Source of the DNA: a virus
Strand: one strand, 5' to 3'
IMG/VR virus record: IMGVR_UViG_3300021181_000010
Span: 1 to 64,000 of that record
Length of the DNA: 64,000 bases
This document shows, in pieces, positions 53,851 to 58,692 of the stretch (position 1 is the first letter of the stretch; each line of letters starts with the position of its first letter). The translations under genes and the position numbers were made by a program. The notes below the pieces were generated by a model. That model was not told the DNA's origin and ran no database searches. It saw only the letters and a program-made list of their open reading frames with translations.

Positions 53851-54690
53851 TCATCGGTTCTCGAATCTGTCTTCAATTTCACGGACCAAATCAATGAATC
53901 CCGGCATTCTCTTCACATCTGGGTGCCACATGAAACCCAATTCGATCATGTCCAATGTATCGACAATACGTGCGCCAGGAATCTCATTACCGGCTACGTC
54001 ACGTTCACGATCCATAATCCATACCGTATCTGCAATCGCCAAAGCCGAAGGAATGTCATGCGTCACCATAATGATCGTATTTAAATCATCCTGGTTCGCA
54101 ACTTCCTGAACGAGCTTCGCCACTCGATTCTTGTTCTTTACATCCAATCCGGCAGTTGGCTCATCCATCAACAAAAAATGTTCTGAGCACAAAAGTTGCT
54201 GGGCAATGGCGACTCGCTGTCTCTGACCACCAGAAAGTTGCGCCGGATATAATTCAGCCTTATTGACCAAATCAAAACGGTTCAGCATCTCCATGCATTT
54301 TTCGTAACCATTCTTTTCGTTGCATCCGGTCTGCTTCACCGAAACCATCAGATTGCTCATGACGGTACGGTTACGATACAGATAATACTGCTGAGAAACC
54401 ATTCCGACGAGGCCAGGAGCGACCGGAGTACGACCATGCCCCAAGTATACATTGCCTGTCGTCGGCTTCTGAAGCCCCGCCAGAATGCGAAGAAACTGGG
54501 TTTTACCGATGCCTGATGGTCCGAGGAAAGCGATAATCTGCCCGGTCACGTCATTGGCAAGCTCAGGCCGGATCAAGTTGTCGATTTTAACGTTGATGTC
54601 TCGAAGAATTAAATTCGATCCATACGACAACGAAACATTCTCGACGGAGAGAAGCGTTTCTGTTCTTGCATATGACATGACGGCACCCAT
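53851..54690 (-). CDS. ABC transporter ATP-binding protein (NitT/TauT-like family)
   Basis: Walker A GPSGIGKT, Q-loop, ABC signature LSGGQRQR, Walker B LLMDEPTAGLD, H-loop VTHD. Confidence 0.85.
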   Translation of the reverse strand: MGAVMSYARTETLLSVENVSLSYGSNLILRDINVKIDNLIRPELANDVTGQIIAFLGPSGIGKTQFLRILAGLQKPTTGNVYLGHGRTPVAPGLVGMVSQQYYLYRNRTVMSNLMVSVKQTGCNEKNGYEKCMEMLNRFDLVNKAELYPAQLSGGQRQRVAIAQQLLCSEHFLLMDEPTAGLDVKNKNRVAKLVQEVANQDDLNTIIMVTHDIPSALAIADTVWIMDRERDVAGNEIPGARIVDTLDMIELGFMWHPDVKRMPGFIDLVREIEDRFENR

Positions 54691-54875
54691 TAAAAGTGGT
54701 TTCCCCAGCGGATGTCTTGCATAACCTTGATAGCTGCTTCGACACCAGCGTGTTTTGTAACCGCCTGAGCTACATCGTCGATCAAGCCACCGATACTATG
54801 AGCATTTTCGGACTCCGCACGCTCATTCAAGTCTCGGACAATTTTTGCGAGCTTTGTTTCTGGTTTCATTTTCAT
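54690..54875 (-). CDS. Small hypothetical protein (start adjusted to MKMKPETKL)
   Basis: ATGA overlap with upstream gene stop at 54872-54875. Confidence 0.3.
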   Translation of the reverse strand: MKMKPETKLAKIVRDLNERAESENAHSIGGLIDDVAQAVTKHAGVEAAIKVMQDIRWGNHF

Positions 54876-55243
54876 CCTCCAAAAGTTTCTGTGTACAACT
54901 GACGAATCTCCATCAAAGTAGTCTGGCGAGAATCCCAATAAGCCAAATTAAAACAAAATTCCTTTTCCAAATTTTGCTTACACTCCAATATCAGAGCATC
55001 AAGCGTATTCCGAAATAGCACTTTTGGATCTGGTAGGCTCACTGTCTTCTTTTGCCCTCTACAAATTTCCTCGCCGCATTCGGAACCCTTCCAAGTTGCA
55101 TTGACGGTTGATCGGCGCTTTACCGTATGCCCACAATCCAAATACAAAGTCCAGTTACAATATCCACTATACCCTGGTCGCTGCACTTCAGGAAAATCAG
55201 GAACCGCCCGGACAACTTTCCGATACCGGCCCTTGGTTCTCAT
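54872..55243 (-). CDS. Hypothetical Cys-containing protein
   Basis: 123-aa ORF between permease and ATPase genes. Confidence 0.4.
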   Translation of the reverse strand: MRTKGRYRKVVRAVPDFPEVQRPGYSGYCNWTLYLDCGHTVKRRSTVNATWKGSECGEEICRGQKKTVSLPDPKVLFRNTLDALILECKQNLEKEFCFNLAYWDSRQTTLMEIRQLYTETFGG

Positions 55244-55543
55244 TTCTTTTTCTTTCCTGGCACAATGATATCTTTCAAAGGAATCCAGATCGAATAGCTA
55301 TCAAATTGAACTTCGATAACTTCTTGTCCAAGAGTCCGTACCGTTCCTTTGACAAGAAGTTTACTCCCAGGTCGGCCCTCTTTCAATTGCGAAAGTTCCC
55401 GTTTGGTCATTTCTTTTTCGCCTTTTCTGCTTCATGATATTGTATCGCTTCAGCCACCACTTCTTCGACATCTGCTACCTTCATACCACATCCAAGAAGT
55501 TCTGTGACCAAATCCCAAAGACGATCTGATGGAGAAATTATGG

Positions 55544-56404: not shown

Positions 56405-56781
56405 TAATTTCTCTTGTCCGACAAAGTGTGGCGTCCTCGAATTCTAACGTTCATTTTGCTCTCGATTTCATCTTCAATTTTGCCGACTAACTCTGTCACT
56501 GTATCACGATCACAAGAAAAGGCAAATCCCACTTTACTGTGCGAGGGGCCGCAATTAAAAACAATTTCATATGTGTGAGATAGTTCATCCGTCTCAGGAT
56601 TTTTGTATGTCGAATAAAGAGTAATCGTATCAATAATCCCGCCAGCCATCTCCCACAAAATTTTAAGAAACACATTGGTGTCCCACTTTCCAGGATCGGT
56701 GAGAACAAAACAAATATCTCGACTGATCTTGGTGAGTGAACCGGCAGCAATAGGAACCTTGTTCAATCCAATGTATGTCAT
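56404..56781 (-). CDS. Hypothetical protein encoded inside the ABC transporter operon
   Basis: 125-aa ORF, no motif recognised. Confidence 0.4.
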   Translation of the reverse strand: MTYIGLNKVPIAAGSLTKISRDICFVLTDPGKWDTNVFLKILWEMAGGIIDTITLYSTYKNPETDELSHTYEIVFNCGPSHSKVGFAFSCDRDTVTELVGKIEDEIESKMNVRIRGRHTLSDKRN

Positions 56782-56829
56782 GTGATTCTCCTATGAAGGG
56801 AGCCTCCCAAAGGAAGACTCCCAATTCAT

Positions 56830-58692
56830 TTACTGCTCGATGGTGCCGAGAACGATTTCGACACGGCGGTTCAATGCACGCTCAGAAGGTGAATTCTGAT
56901 TTGCGTTCGGATGAAGAGGCTCTTCCTGACCATGAGCGTAGGTGCGAACGATGTTCTTCACACCCTTGTTCTTCAGGTATTGAGCAACCGAATCTGCACG
57001 AGCCTGAGAAAGCGTAACGTTGGCATCGGCATTTCCGGTATTGTCGGTATGGCCGTGAGCAGCCACGGCGTACTTGGTCAATACGATGTCATCGGCGAGT
57101 TGATTCAACACACCGTAAGAAACCGGCAGAATCGTAGCGCTGCCAACCGAGAACTGAATGCTGTAGTTCTTACGGCCTTCAATGCTCGACATGGACTTCG
57201 TGGACTTCGTGACCACGACATCTTCGGCATTGTTTGTCGGCAGAACATTCTTCGCAGCAACCGCAGCCACATATTGCGTATCCAAAATTTCTGAAACCGC
57301 AGGATAAGTCGCCATGATGTTAGGATACTGCTGGACATCGATCTTACCGAAAGTGTTGTACGTGGCAGCAAAAAGATTCACGCCGCCGTTCAAACCGAAG
57401 GACTGCATCGCATCGGCAAGATTGGCAACAGAAGAACCACCGAGATGGACACGAACACCCAATGCATCCGGTTCAGTAACACCCTTGTAGTATCGAACCC
57501 AATAATCCGCCGACTCTTCGTTATAAAGAGCGTAAGCGACCTTGCCGTATTCGGTCAAAGCTGCCGGATTCACACGCATCTGATCGGCACCCTCGAAAGC
57601 TGCTGACAACATCTTTACGATGTCTTCTTTGTGAGCACGATCCCAGCGACGAAGGCCGATAAGCACACAAGGCATCTGGAATGCAGACTGTTGAGTGGTC
57701 ATGATCGGCACGACTCCACCCTTCTTCTTCGCCACAGTCACGTCACCGGGCGTCCAGGTAACCACGGCATCGGCACATTTATGAATCTTGCCGCCACCGA
57801 TGCCCTTTACAGTGAAGTCAGCACAGGCCACGCCGTTTGCGAAGTCCGCTGCCGCATCAGTATACGATTTGGAATCAATCCAGTTCATCGCAGTCTTGTC
57901 GTAGGTGTTAGTGTCCGGGTTATTCGGAATGTTGCACTGACCCAACTTCTTCAGAGCGATATTCCAGTCGCCGTCACGAAGCACGCCAACGGTCACACCG
58001 CCACGCATTGCTTCACAGTTGTTCTTCCACTCTGCCGGTCCCCAGAAACCATCCTCACCACGGCTGTAACCGATAGTAGCGATAACTTCTGCAATCATGT
58101 CGGGTGCGATCTTCGCCAACTTCGGATTGATCGTCGCAAAGAAAGCCGGATCGCCATCACCCATGTCCGTAATGAACTTCACACCGCTGGCATTCGGGTC
58201 ACTTGCAAGACGCTGCGCTGTATCCAACAGATCAGCTTGCATCTGATTGGTGTCATCCTGACGAGTGATACGAACGTTGACGCCATACTTCTCCATCAAC
58301 GATCCTTTGCTGGTCTGAATGAACTTGGATTTACCGCTCTGCCCAACAGAGCTACCAACAGCATAGTCCAGACCGCCGTTCGCATTCCAGGCCCATTGCT
58401 CGATCTCATGAACGGGGCCTGCAATGCAATTACGAATGTTGCCGTCCATGCATGGCTGAACTGCCGTCGAAGTCGGAAGCGGAGCCGCCTTCACGTTGCC
58501 GGGGTTGGTTTCGAGCACATTCGCAGTGATCTCTTCGGCCTTGACCGGGATGTAAGCCTTCAGTGCGTTCGGGCGAGGGATGAGTCCAGTGTAGACGGCA
58601 TGACGATAGCCGAATACCAGACCACCAACCACAAGCAAGAACAAAATCAGTTTCGGTAGCGGTTTCATTTTCATATGTTTGTTCCTTTTCAA
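56830..58692 (-). CDS. Membrane-anchored substrate-binding-protein-like domain fused to C-terminal OmpA/MotB peptidoglycan-binding domain, 620 aa
   Basis: N-terminal TM/signal (KLILFLLVVGGLVFGY); about 450-aa periplasmic domain resembling NitT/TauT-type solute-binding proteins; C-terminal HTDNTGNADANVTLSQARADSVAQYLKNKGV...RALNRRVEIVL is the OmpA-like signature. Confidence 0.55.
   Translation of the reverse strand: MKRNKHMKMKPLPKLILFLLVVGGLVFGYRHAVYTGLIPRPNALKAYIPVKAEEITANVLETNPGNVKAAPLPTSTAVQPCMDGNIRNCIAGPVHEIEQWAWNANGGLDYAVGSSVGQSGKSKFIQTSKGSLMEKYGVNVRITRQDDTNQMQADLLDTAQRLASDPNASGVKFITDMGDGDPAFFATINPKLAKIAPDMIAEVIATIGYSRGEDGFWGPAEWKNNCEAMRGGVTVGVLRDGDWNIALKKLGQCNIPNNPDTNTYDKTAMNWIDSKSYTDAAADFANGVACADFTVKGIGGGKIHKCADAVVTWTPGDVTVAKKKGGVVPIMTTQQSAFQMPCVLIGLRRWDRAHKEDIVKMLSAAFEGADQMRVNPAALTEYGKVAYALYNEESADYWVRYYKGVTEPDALGVRVHLGGSSVANLADAMQSFGLNGGVNLFAATYNTFGKIDVQQYPNIMATYPAVSEILDTQYVAAVAAKNVLPTNNAEDVVVTKSTKSMSSIEGRKNYSIQFSVGSATILPVSYGVLNQLADDIVLTKYAVAAHGHTDNTGNADANVTLSQARADSVAQYLKNKGVKNIVRTYAHGQEEPLHPNANQNSPSERALNRRVEIVLGTIEQ

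Follow-up and report, generated by a model that had tools for sequence, protein, structure and literature searches.

A five-gene locus coding for an ABC transporter and a putative PspA/IM30-like protein in huge phages and bacteria

Why would a phage carry a complete ATP-binding cassette (ABC) transporter whose solute-binding protein (SBP) is fused to an OmpA-like domain? The question is raised by the IMG/VR virus record IMGVR_UViG_3300021181_000010, of which positions 1 to 64,000 were analysed (this whole 64,000-nucleotide stretch is referred to as the window). The original prediction, made from the sequence of the window, had described an ATPase, a permease and a 620-residue fusion protein (here SBP-OmpA), and had proposed that they form either a cargo or auxiliary metabolic gene (AMG) cassette of the NitT/TauT type or the sign of a prophage/host junction.

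The three open reading frames (ORFs) lie on the minus strand exactly where they had been placed. The extent given for the cassette, 53851-58692, is correct for these three genes, but its boundary is not, as two further genes, tm362 and cc227, belong to the conserved unit. This unit consists of five minus-strand genes running from 60519 to 53851 in the order cc227, tm362, SBP-OmpA, permease and ATPase, and all ten ORFs in the interval are co-directional, with gaps of at most 48 nt or overlaps between them. On balance we favour, by a modest preference, the reading that the region is the phage copy of a conserved cellular envelope module and not a stand-alone nutrient transporter, because of the five-gene linkage, the phage context, the cellular copies, the match between tm362 and PspA, and 62 residues of SBP-OmpA that are conserved in viral and cellular homologs alike. 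Four other explanations are weighed, which are, in descending order of weight, a NitT/TauT AMG, an ABC-driven sensor, an envelope conflict system, and host DNA or a chimera.

Five linked genes in phages and bacteria

Related loci were fetched through the SBP-OmpA protein, which is therefore present by construction in each of the 144 loci, and homologs of the other genes were identified by iterative hidden Markov model (HMM) searches. The canonical five-gene order is found in 61 loci, comprising 49 of the 64 viral loci and 12 cellular ones. Where viral loci have enough flanking sequence, both upstream genes are present in 46 of 53, and the permease and ATPase are present downstream in 52 of 56. 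Homologs of cc227 occur in 101 of the 144 loci and lie immediately upstream of tm362, in canonical order, in the same number of loci as the full arrangement (61). Three loci (L001-L003) were counted as viral by gene content, the first of which is deposited as a contig of a Polyangiales metagenome-assembled genome (MAG).

At least 59 IMG/VR contigs carry the module, 35 of them at least 100 kb and 16 at least 200 kb long. Two GenBank records, both unannotated, hold the five genes in the same order at internal positions: the Prevotella phage Lak-C1 (MK250029.1, 540 kb, a circular record; locus L005) at 324-330.5 kb and LR756500 (LR756500.1, 462 kb; locus L004) at 376-382 kb. The 529-residue protein of Lak-C1 aligns with SBP-OmpA by hhalign (E 3e-15). 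Synteny of the module is also kept in contigs of 370 and 375 kb, so that homologous phages do carry the same cassette.

The SBP-OmpA fusion had been thought unusual; it is uncharacterised, but it belongs to a very large family of at least 1793 clusters, with 381 matches in a GTDB scan of one genome per species, and such a fusion was noted by Ravi et al. 2024. The 80 best of these 381 matches were kept, and all 80 loci are labelled as MAG or isolate, with about 40% identity, mainly from Acidobacteriota, Myxococcota, Armatimonadota and Longimicrobium; labels of the cultured genera Fimbriimonas, Chthonomonas and Archangium are among the GTDB matches. The permease of the window is 43% identical to a permease on an Acidobacteriota chromosome. 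The flanks of GTDB loci have 0.6-5% of their ORFs in common with viral flanks, compared with 30% for viral loci among themselves, and most GTDB loci are therefore not mis-binned phage.

Three cellular loci illustrate the settings in which the genes are found. On a 1.34-Mb Acidobacteriaceae contig (L114), the five genes have cysS/fmdE on one side and, on the other, a sigma-54 response regulator with a histidine kinase. On the complete 3.29-Mb chromosome of a Fimbriimonadaceae member (L135), the trio of SBP-OmpA, permease and ATPase lies among SDR, GFO/IDH and PEP-CTERM genes. On a 3.48-Mb Acidobacteriota contig (L120, 11761-15139), the order is permease, ATPase, a 354-residue unknown protein and SBP-OmpA, and the cassette adjoins TPR, TIR-domain and HepT-like RNase genes, surroundings that resemble a defence island.

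A second cellular architecture (type 2) has seven genes, in the order cc227, PspA, SBP-OmpA, permease, ATPase, c300 and AAA, where c300 is a protein with a transmembrane segment and a coiled coil. The HMMs of c300 and AAA (c587) match in cellular loci only, with no match in the 64-kb window.

In a neighbour-joining tree of 140 SBP-OmpA proteins there are about seven switches between virus and cell, and the protein of the window falls in an all-viral clade of 11. The five-gene phage-type order also occurs on contigs binned to the Candidate Phyla Radiation (CPR), namely L087 (Candidatus Kerfeldbacteria MAG, 130 kb) and L101 and L136 (Candidatus Saccharibacteria MAGs, 19 and 103 kb), with L101 truncated at the contig end. 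CPR bacteria are not expected to have a diderm periplasm, and these three contigs may be mis-binned huge-phage fragments, which would explain some of the switches.

The neighbours of the L120 cassette invite the proposal that the genes form an envelope conflict device, acting at the inner membrane and wall in superinfection exclusion or anti-defence on the side of the phage, or in defence on the side of the cell. Exclusion systems are often phage-carried, and OmpA/MotB-like anchors are found in ZorB of the Zorya system, to which PADLOC gives weak matches in the OmpA domain only. We consider this improbable: PADLOC returned generic ABC-ATPase and OmpA-domain matches and no system-specific one, other cellular loci lie among the housekeeping genes cysS, SDR and GFO/IDH, and few virus/cell switches combined with strong conservation are unlike the fast turnover of defence genes.

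The transporter, its tethered binding protein and the upstream genes

Pfam, NCBIfam and PDB sequence searches of the 620-residue protein recover the OmpA part only and no SBP model; the SBP domain is invisible to sequence models and structure prediction was therefore needed. The AlphaFold2 model, built on 35 homologs with a predicted local distance difference test (pLDDT) score of 87.6, contains a transmembrane helix (residues 11-34), a disordered linker (40-63), a bilobed α/β region (approximately 90-480) and the OmpA domain (500-618). The middle domain is grouped by Foldseek with TauA, NrtA, CmpA, SsuA, ThiY/Thi5 and PqqT, with template modelling (TM) scores per target of up to 0.77; the best match is TauA (6ssy, 0.77), and NrtA, CmpA and SsuA score 0.63-0.72. 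As modelled, the middle domain holds as an SBP at the level of fold, and the predicted succession of membrane anchor, SBP-like domain and OmpA domain is borne out by Pfam, AlphaFold2 and Foldseek. The 620-residue ORF starts at a TTG codon, and an ATG at 58674 gives the 614-residue form found in the database.

The OmpA-like domain matches PF00691 at residues 514-601 (52.8 bits against a cut-off of 27.2), and a PDB profile search retrieves domains of OmpA, YiaD, YfiB, MotB and Pal, down to E 3e-25. Within the motif TD-x-G...N-x-x-LS-x-x-RA, residues T549, D550, N558, L561, S562 and R565 are either invariant or conserved to 90% or more, and it is the Asp and Arg of this motif that contact the peptide stem. 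The domain is thus a predicted peptidoglycan binder, and the binding domain would be tethered both at the inner membrane and at the cell wall. This layout of an N-terminal transmembrane helix, a periplasmic region and a C-terminal OmpA-like domain with the TD...N..LS..RA motif is shared with anchors of the MotB, PomB, TssL and Pal type, from which the protein differs in containing a full SBP fold of about 400 residues and in having ABC partners instead of a MotA/TolQ/ExbB-type channel. In viral and cellular homologs alike, 62 residues reach at least 90% conservation, among them T549, D550, N558, L561 and R565 of the OmpA motif, which implies the same molecular function in phage and cell.

The ATPase and permease fall into PF00005 and PF00528. 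The ATPase (PF00005, E 4e-24; phrog_293 ABC transporter, E 3e-51) has intact motifs, namely the Walker A GPSGIGKT (57), Q100, LSGGQ (152), D176-E177 and H211, and every catalytic motif is at least 90% conserved across 138 homologs. The permease (39.5 bits against a cut-off of 26.4) has 5-6 hydrophobic transmembrane segments and presumably acts as a homodimer. Its EAA-like coupling loop (DHSRTLRMSEW..., from residue 181) is degenerate, with the canonical Gly replaced by Arg.

The ATPase of the closest large relative, a 370-kb contig (L145; ENA ERZ25039518 contig_18430), is 643 residues long (10932-12863) and carries Hom_end_hint and LAGLIDADG_3 matches, a combination that indicates a putative intein. 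Inteins are usually found in conserved, functionally important genes.

These proteins bear on whether the locus is a plain AMG, in which case a NitT/TauT importer would boost uptake of nitrate, bicarbonate, taurine or sulfonate by the host, and the OmpA domain and upstream genes would be incidental. The known importers of this type (TauABC, SsuABC, NrtABCD/CmpABCD; Transporter Classification 3.A.1.16-17) share with the locus the type-I permease fold, the binding-domain fold, and a small homodimer-type permease paired with a single gene for a nucleotide-binding domain. The closest solved binding-domain folds are TauA, NrtA, CmpA and SsuA, and the permease matches in NCBIfam are solely SaoP, TauC, NtrB and SsuC; the PHROGs category of the ATPase is 'moron, auxiliary metabolic gene', and many cellular loci carry the trio without a detectable cc227/tm362 pair. 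The closest resemblance of the permease and binding domain is therefore to the NitT/TauT family, as originally proposed. The equivalog scores, however, lie far under the cut-offs: 33.5 against 295 bits for SaoP, 26.2 against 342 for TauC, 25.2 against 209 for NtrB and 22.9 against 347 for SsuC, while the best NCBIfam match of the ATPase, PhnT2, reaches 157 bits against 458. None of the NCBIfam equivalog scores comes near its cut-off, and membership of the family is not found by this measure.

The binding domain differs as well. Its residues that are at least 90% conserved comprise 8 Asp, 1 Glu, 4 Trp, 4 Asn and 2 Tyr, and no Arg, Lys or His is among them, conservation being followed along the sequence. 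In NrtA, the ligand site has conserved His and Lys suited to an oxyanion. The binding protein of the window is tethered by a transmembrane helix and an OmpA domain rather than being free or lipid-anchored, and in 46 of 53 viral loci the trio is inherited together with PspA-like and coiled-coil genes, as it is with a genuine PspA in cellular variants. The phage carriers also differ widely in habitat, with Lak phages of Prevotella from the gut on the one hand and environmental huge phages on the other, which is atypical of a nutrient-specific AMG. Taken with the scores, these observations make a plain nitrate, sulfonate, taurine or bicarbonate AMG doubtful, and we regard it as unlikely.

Upstream of SBP-OmpA, tm362 begins with a hairpin of two predicted transmembrane helices (residues 24-42 and 56-74), and the distribution of charges suggests that its N and C termini are cytoplasmic. 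There follow an amphipathic segment, an invariant D101-P102, a helical hairpin (102-157 and 161-234) and a disordered tail. The AlphaFold2 model contains a long hairpin (pLDDT 80-94; overall 65) and then shorter helices, and its top Foldseek matches are Vipp1/PspA, at a weak E of 6e-3. Comparison by hhalign of the tm362 family with the module-linked PF04012 proteins and enterobacterial (E. coli) PspA gave a probability of 90.2% and E 1.5e-6 over 110 columns, and deeper alignments, with the module-linked PspA family as reference, gave 93.8% and E 1.7e-7 over 205 columns. The alignment spans helix α0, the conserved (E/D)P at the start of α1, and α1-α2. In the second cellular architecture, a bona fide PspA_IM30 protein (PF04012, E 1.7e-20, 74 bits against 33.9) is encoded directly upstream of SBP-OmpA. 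On this evidence, in which the statistical support comes from profile-profile comparison and is moderate, we assign tm362 with moderate confidence as a membrane-anchored PspA/IM30-like protein of the ESCRT-III superfamily.

Compared with PspA/Vipp1 (IM30) and ESCRT-III proteins (PF04012; Liu et al. 2021 Cell, PMC8281802), tm362 is alike in the α0-α2 alignment, the (E/D)P and the helical hairpin; it differs in its length (362 residues) and in its two-transmembrane N-terminal anchor, classical PspA being peripheral, and the window encodes no PspBC/F or Lia partners. The tm362 family comprises 1339 clusters among 1.84 billion representatives, and it includes a 354-residue protein of Lak-C1 (hhalign E 1e-29) and a 353-residue protein of the cellular locus L114 (E 2e-51). 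Proteins of 321 and 235 residues in L135 and of 354 residues in L120 were also considered as tm362 homologs and rejected, as they have no similarity to it and belong to c300 or to unassigned families.

The first gene, cc227, codes for a protein that starts with a short conserved helix, continues with a Pro-rich low-complexity linker and ends in a coiled coil; the protein has no transmembrane segment and is not detectably PspA-like. It matches a 226-residue protein of L114 (BLASTP E 3e-4) and is also found upstream of PspA in the seven-gene cellular version.

Phage context and layout of the region

The window contains genes for the T4-type baseplate proteins gp5, gp6 and gp8, and an ATP-dependent DNA ligase is encoded 2.4 kb away from the cassette. 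The gp6 protein shares about 40% identity with its counterparts in Pelagibacter and Methylophilales myophages and in cyanomyophages, and by this gene content the window belongs to a T4-like myovirus. A database protein 100% identical to the 620-residue ORF sits on a contig of 405,631 bp, so that the contig of the window is probably 405 kb long, the size of a giant phage. A megablast search of the region against GenBank phages gave no match and no close relative. Together with the 24 tRNA genes of the window, these genes uphold the earlier view of a complete ABC cassette carried as cargo in a phage genome.

The cassette could alternatively be host DNA, present through a prophage/host junction or a chimeric assembly. 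Relatives of all five genes do lie on bacterial chromosomes, and the GC content of the SBP-OmpA gene (0.52) is slightly above that of the window (0.463). The module as a whole has a GC content of 0.479 and ORF125, between SBP-OmpA and the permease, 0.407; there is no GC break, and the cumulative GC skew is continuous across the window. A search for att repeats at the cassette flanks found chance 14-nt repeats only. Phage genes lie on both sides, with the ligase, tRNA array and baseplate genes on one and ORFs common only to the related 370-kb phage contig on the other. The cassette is next to the DNA ligase in independent related contigs of 370, 375 and 230-320 kb as well, so that comparative genomics, instead of placing 53.6-58.7 kb in a host chromosome, finds the same position kept in phage contigs, and in the curated genomes of Lak-C1 and LR756500 the module occupies an internal position. 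T4-like phages are not known to integrate. We therefore abandon the prophage/host junction and give an origin as host DNA hardly any credence.

An identical 14-mer, GGTTTCATTTTCAT, occurs at 54862-54875 and 58661-58674. Read on the opposite strand, the 14-mer is ATGAAAATGAAACC, a sequence that codes for 'MKMKP'. This peptide is found both inside the 82-residue ORF and where SBP-OmpA probably truly begins (ATG 58674), and the repeat appears to be a coincidence of coding rather than an att site.

Features of the module region, in positions of the window
Feature	Position	Strand	Description
Candidate promoter	60532..60561	minus	sigma-70-like (TTGACG, 18 nt, TAGATT); just upstream of cc227
cc227	59836..60519	minus	227-aa cytoplasmic coiled-coil protein; first gene of the module
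tm362	58708..59796	minus	362 aa; two transmembrane segments; PspA/IM30-like
SBP-OmpA	56830..58692	minus	620-aa bitopic protein; Pfam OmpA, AlphaFold2, Foldseek
SBP-OmpA, predicted transmembrane anchor	58591..58662	minus
SBP-OmpA, predicted class-II binding domain	57238..58425	minus
SBP-OmpA, OmpA-like domain	56833..57177	minus
ORF125	56404..56781	minus	small lineage-specific ORF between SBP-OmpA and permease
Permease	55544..56404	minus	286 aa; type I importer (BPD_transp_1), PF00528
Four overlapping small ORFs	54690..55580	minus	57, 56, 123 and 82 aa; between permease and ATPase
ABC ATPase	53851..54690	minus	279 aa; nucleotide-binding domain and short C-terminal extension
Candidate terminator	53795..53811	minus	terminator-like hairpin, about 40 nt past the ATPase stop

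The promoter match upstream of cc227 and the hairpin past the ATPase are possible start and end points of an operon, as judged by motif. The promoter is only a candidate because promoter-like sites in the region are not above shuffles (17 against 12.5 +/- 4.2); terminator-like sites are likewise not enriched over shuffles, and the T4 late-promoter motif TATAAATA does not occur on the coding strand.

The small ORFs noted earlier between the main genes are present. ORF125, whose stop overlaps the start of the permease, has no homolog in any of 144-147 related loci and no Pfam, PHROG or NCBIfam match. Three of the four ORFs between permease and ATPase have no homolog in any of 147 related loci, and the fourth, of 82 residues, has one only in L145, the closest relative. 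Elsewhere, the permease adjoins the ATPase or is separated from it by a different small ORF. By their distribution, all five are lineage-specific ORFs outside the conserved module.

The 24 tRNA genes lie on the minus strand between 19687 and 53054, among small ORFs, and the last three (52525-53054) are less than 1 kb from the end of the module. The set consists of Gly (two), Ser (four), Leu (five), Pro (three), Val, Met, His, Gln (two), Glu (two), Thr and Asp (two); a large tRNA complement is typical of huge phages. An HNH endonuclease gene (phrog_10822, E 1e-39; 31874-32758, minus strand) lies within the array, its 5' end overlapping tRNA-Leu(gag) at 32729-32814. Two giant structural ORFs on the minus strand, at 8-4918 and 6546-10577, flank gp8; one is 1636 residues long with DUF4815 (E 2e-53), and the other is 1343 residues long with a baseplate-wedge domain. 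An 862-residue ORF (22906-25494, minus strand) has matches to the shoulder domain of the major vault protein (PF11978, E 7e-22) and to a Vault_3 repeat (PF17795, E 2e-7), with no PHROG match; a protein resembling the major vault protein is unexpected in a phage genome.

Related systems and a possible role at the host envelope

A bacterial operon with the order PspA, PBPB+OmpA, permease, ABC-ATPase, TM+Snf7 (where TM denotes a transmembrane segment) and AAA+ was described by Ravi et al. 2024 (mSystems, PMC11237479), with Handelsmanbacteria OGG56892.1 as exemplar. The work is computational only and proposes that membrane remodelling and solute transport are linked; the terms 'bacteriophage' and 'phage genome' are absent from its main text. 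Compared by published architecture, the window shares with this operon a PspA-superfamily protein, a signal- or transmembrane-anchored fusion of binding protein and OmpA, a permease and an ABC ATPase, and the seven-gene layout recovered here in cellular relatives of the window's protein corresponds to it. The window differs in having a single PspA-like protein, itself anchored by two transmembrane helices, in lacking a separate TM+Snf7 protein and a double (inactive and active) AAA+ ATPase, in having the coiled-coil gene cc227 in front, and in being phage-carried.

The missing AAA+ ATPase leads to another proposal, that the locus is a sensor or mechanotransducer, in which the binding domain and ABC complex would sense a signal from the periplasm or the wall, for example envelope damage or a muropeptide, and ATP hydrolysis would control the PspA-like assembly in place of the AAA+ ATPase. 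The phage version (type 1) has neither AAA+ ATPase nor c300, so that its ABC ATPase is the only NTPase, and a double tether by transmembrane helix and OmpA domain would be odd for an SBP of the shuttle type. The permease, however, has an ordinary type-I importer fold, and a full bilobed SBP fold is retained, together with a set of conserved polar and aromatic residues such as ligand sites typically have. A role of this kind therefore seems to us rather unlikely.

Phage-encoded ABC transport components have been described before, including cyanophage pstS. The AOB (ammonia-oxidising bacteria) phage roc5 was claimed in a 2026 preprint (bioRxiv 10.64898/2026.05.02.722434) as carrying the first complete ABC transporter cassette in a phage. 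Like the window, roc5 encodes a full set of SBP, permease and ATPase; it differs in being of the carbohydrate type, with an arabinose-like SBP, two different permeases and no OmpA or PspA-like genes. The published genomes of Lak-C1 (2019) and LR756500 (2020) hold a complete SBP-permease-ATPase cassette that predates this claim. The huge-phage survey of Al-Shayeb et al. 2020 has no mention of ABC transporter, permease or OmpA, and in the literature searched no report of this module in phages was found. Jug phages (360-402 kb, from the gut), which have a pspA-like gene, were considered as relatives and rejected, as their GC content is 27-30%, the pspA-like gene lies beside terD and there is no ABC cassette. 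A module of this kind had already been noticed computationally in bacteria; that it is widespread and conserved among huge phages appears not to have been reported.

Several observations weigh against an envelope module that includes a PspA-like partner. No Pfam PspA or Snf7 match was obtained for tm362, including in a scan of 25 members; hhalign against a shallow profile of E. coli-only or enterobacterial PspA was insignificant (2%, E 0.02); and coiled-coil noise was all that profile searches of the PDB returned for the tm362 and cc227 families. For cc227 there is no specific Pfam, PHROG or NCBIfam family, and no fold family can be assigned. Neither the AAA+ ATPase nor the c300 'TM-Snf7' protein of the operon described by Ravi et al. 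is present in the phage version. In about half of the cellular loci the trio occurs without a detectable cc227/tm362 pair, and the transporter is therefore presumably able to work alone. The argument from missing basic residues is one from conservation rather than from mapping of the cleft, and the coupling between transporter and PspA-like protein, the substrate and the timing of expression are all inferred.

Under the favoured envelope-module reading, a complex of two ATPase and two permease subunits would import a small periplasmic solute handed over by the tethered binding domain. This solute is probably not a simple anion or oxyanion, as Asp, Trp, Asn and Tyr are among the conserved residues of the domain and Arg, Lys and His are not. 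On the cytoplasmic face of the same inner membrane, tm362 and its coiled-coil partner cc227 may form a scaffold, and the phage would express the set to keep the inner membrane of the host intact, energised or osmotically balanced through a long infection.

A bolder proposal, which we put forward tentatively and would sooner doubt than affirm, is that unrelated huge-phage lineages (T4-like jumbo phages, Lak megaphages and others) carry a 'phage-shock' system of their own, in which an anchored PspA/ESCRT-III-type scaffold would work as one machine with a wall-tethered ABC importer, preserving the inner membrane, proton-motive force or osmotic balance of the host throughout a prolonged and crowded infection cycle. 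If true, it would represent a class of host-takeover function not recognised before, and complete ABC transporters would be common, not exceptional, in phage genomes. Complete ABC cassettes are still regarded as rare in phages, yet this module is widespread, including in the published Lak-C1 and LR756500 genomes, where it has apparently gone unremarked. Should the locus be only a solute importer, it would still represent a large transporter family that has no name and whose binding protein is unusual in being tethered to the wall. The module offers an experimental handle on a widespread bacterial PspA-ABC system, and the constancy of its PspA-like partner suggests an active part of huge phages in keeping the host envelope intact.

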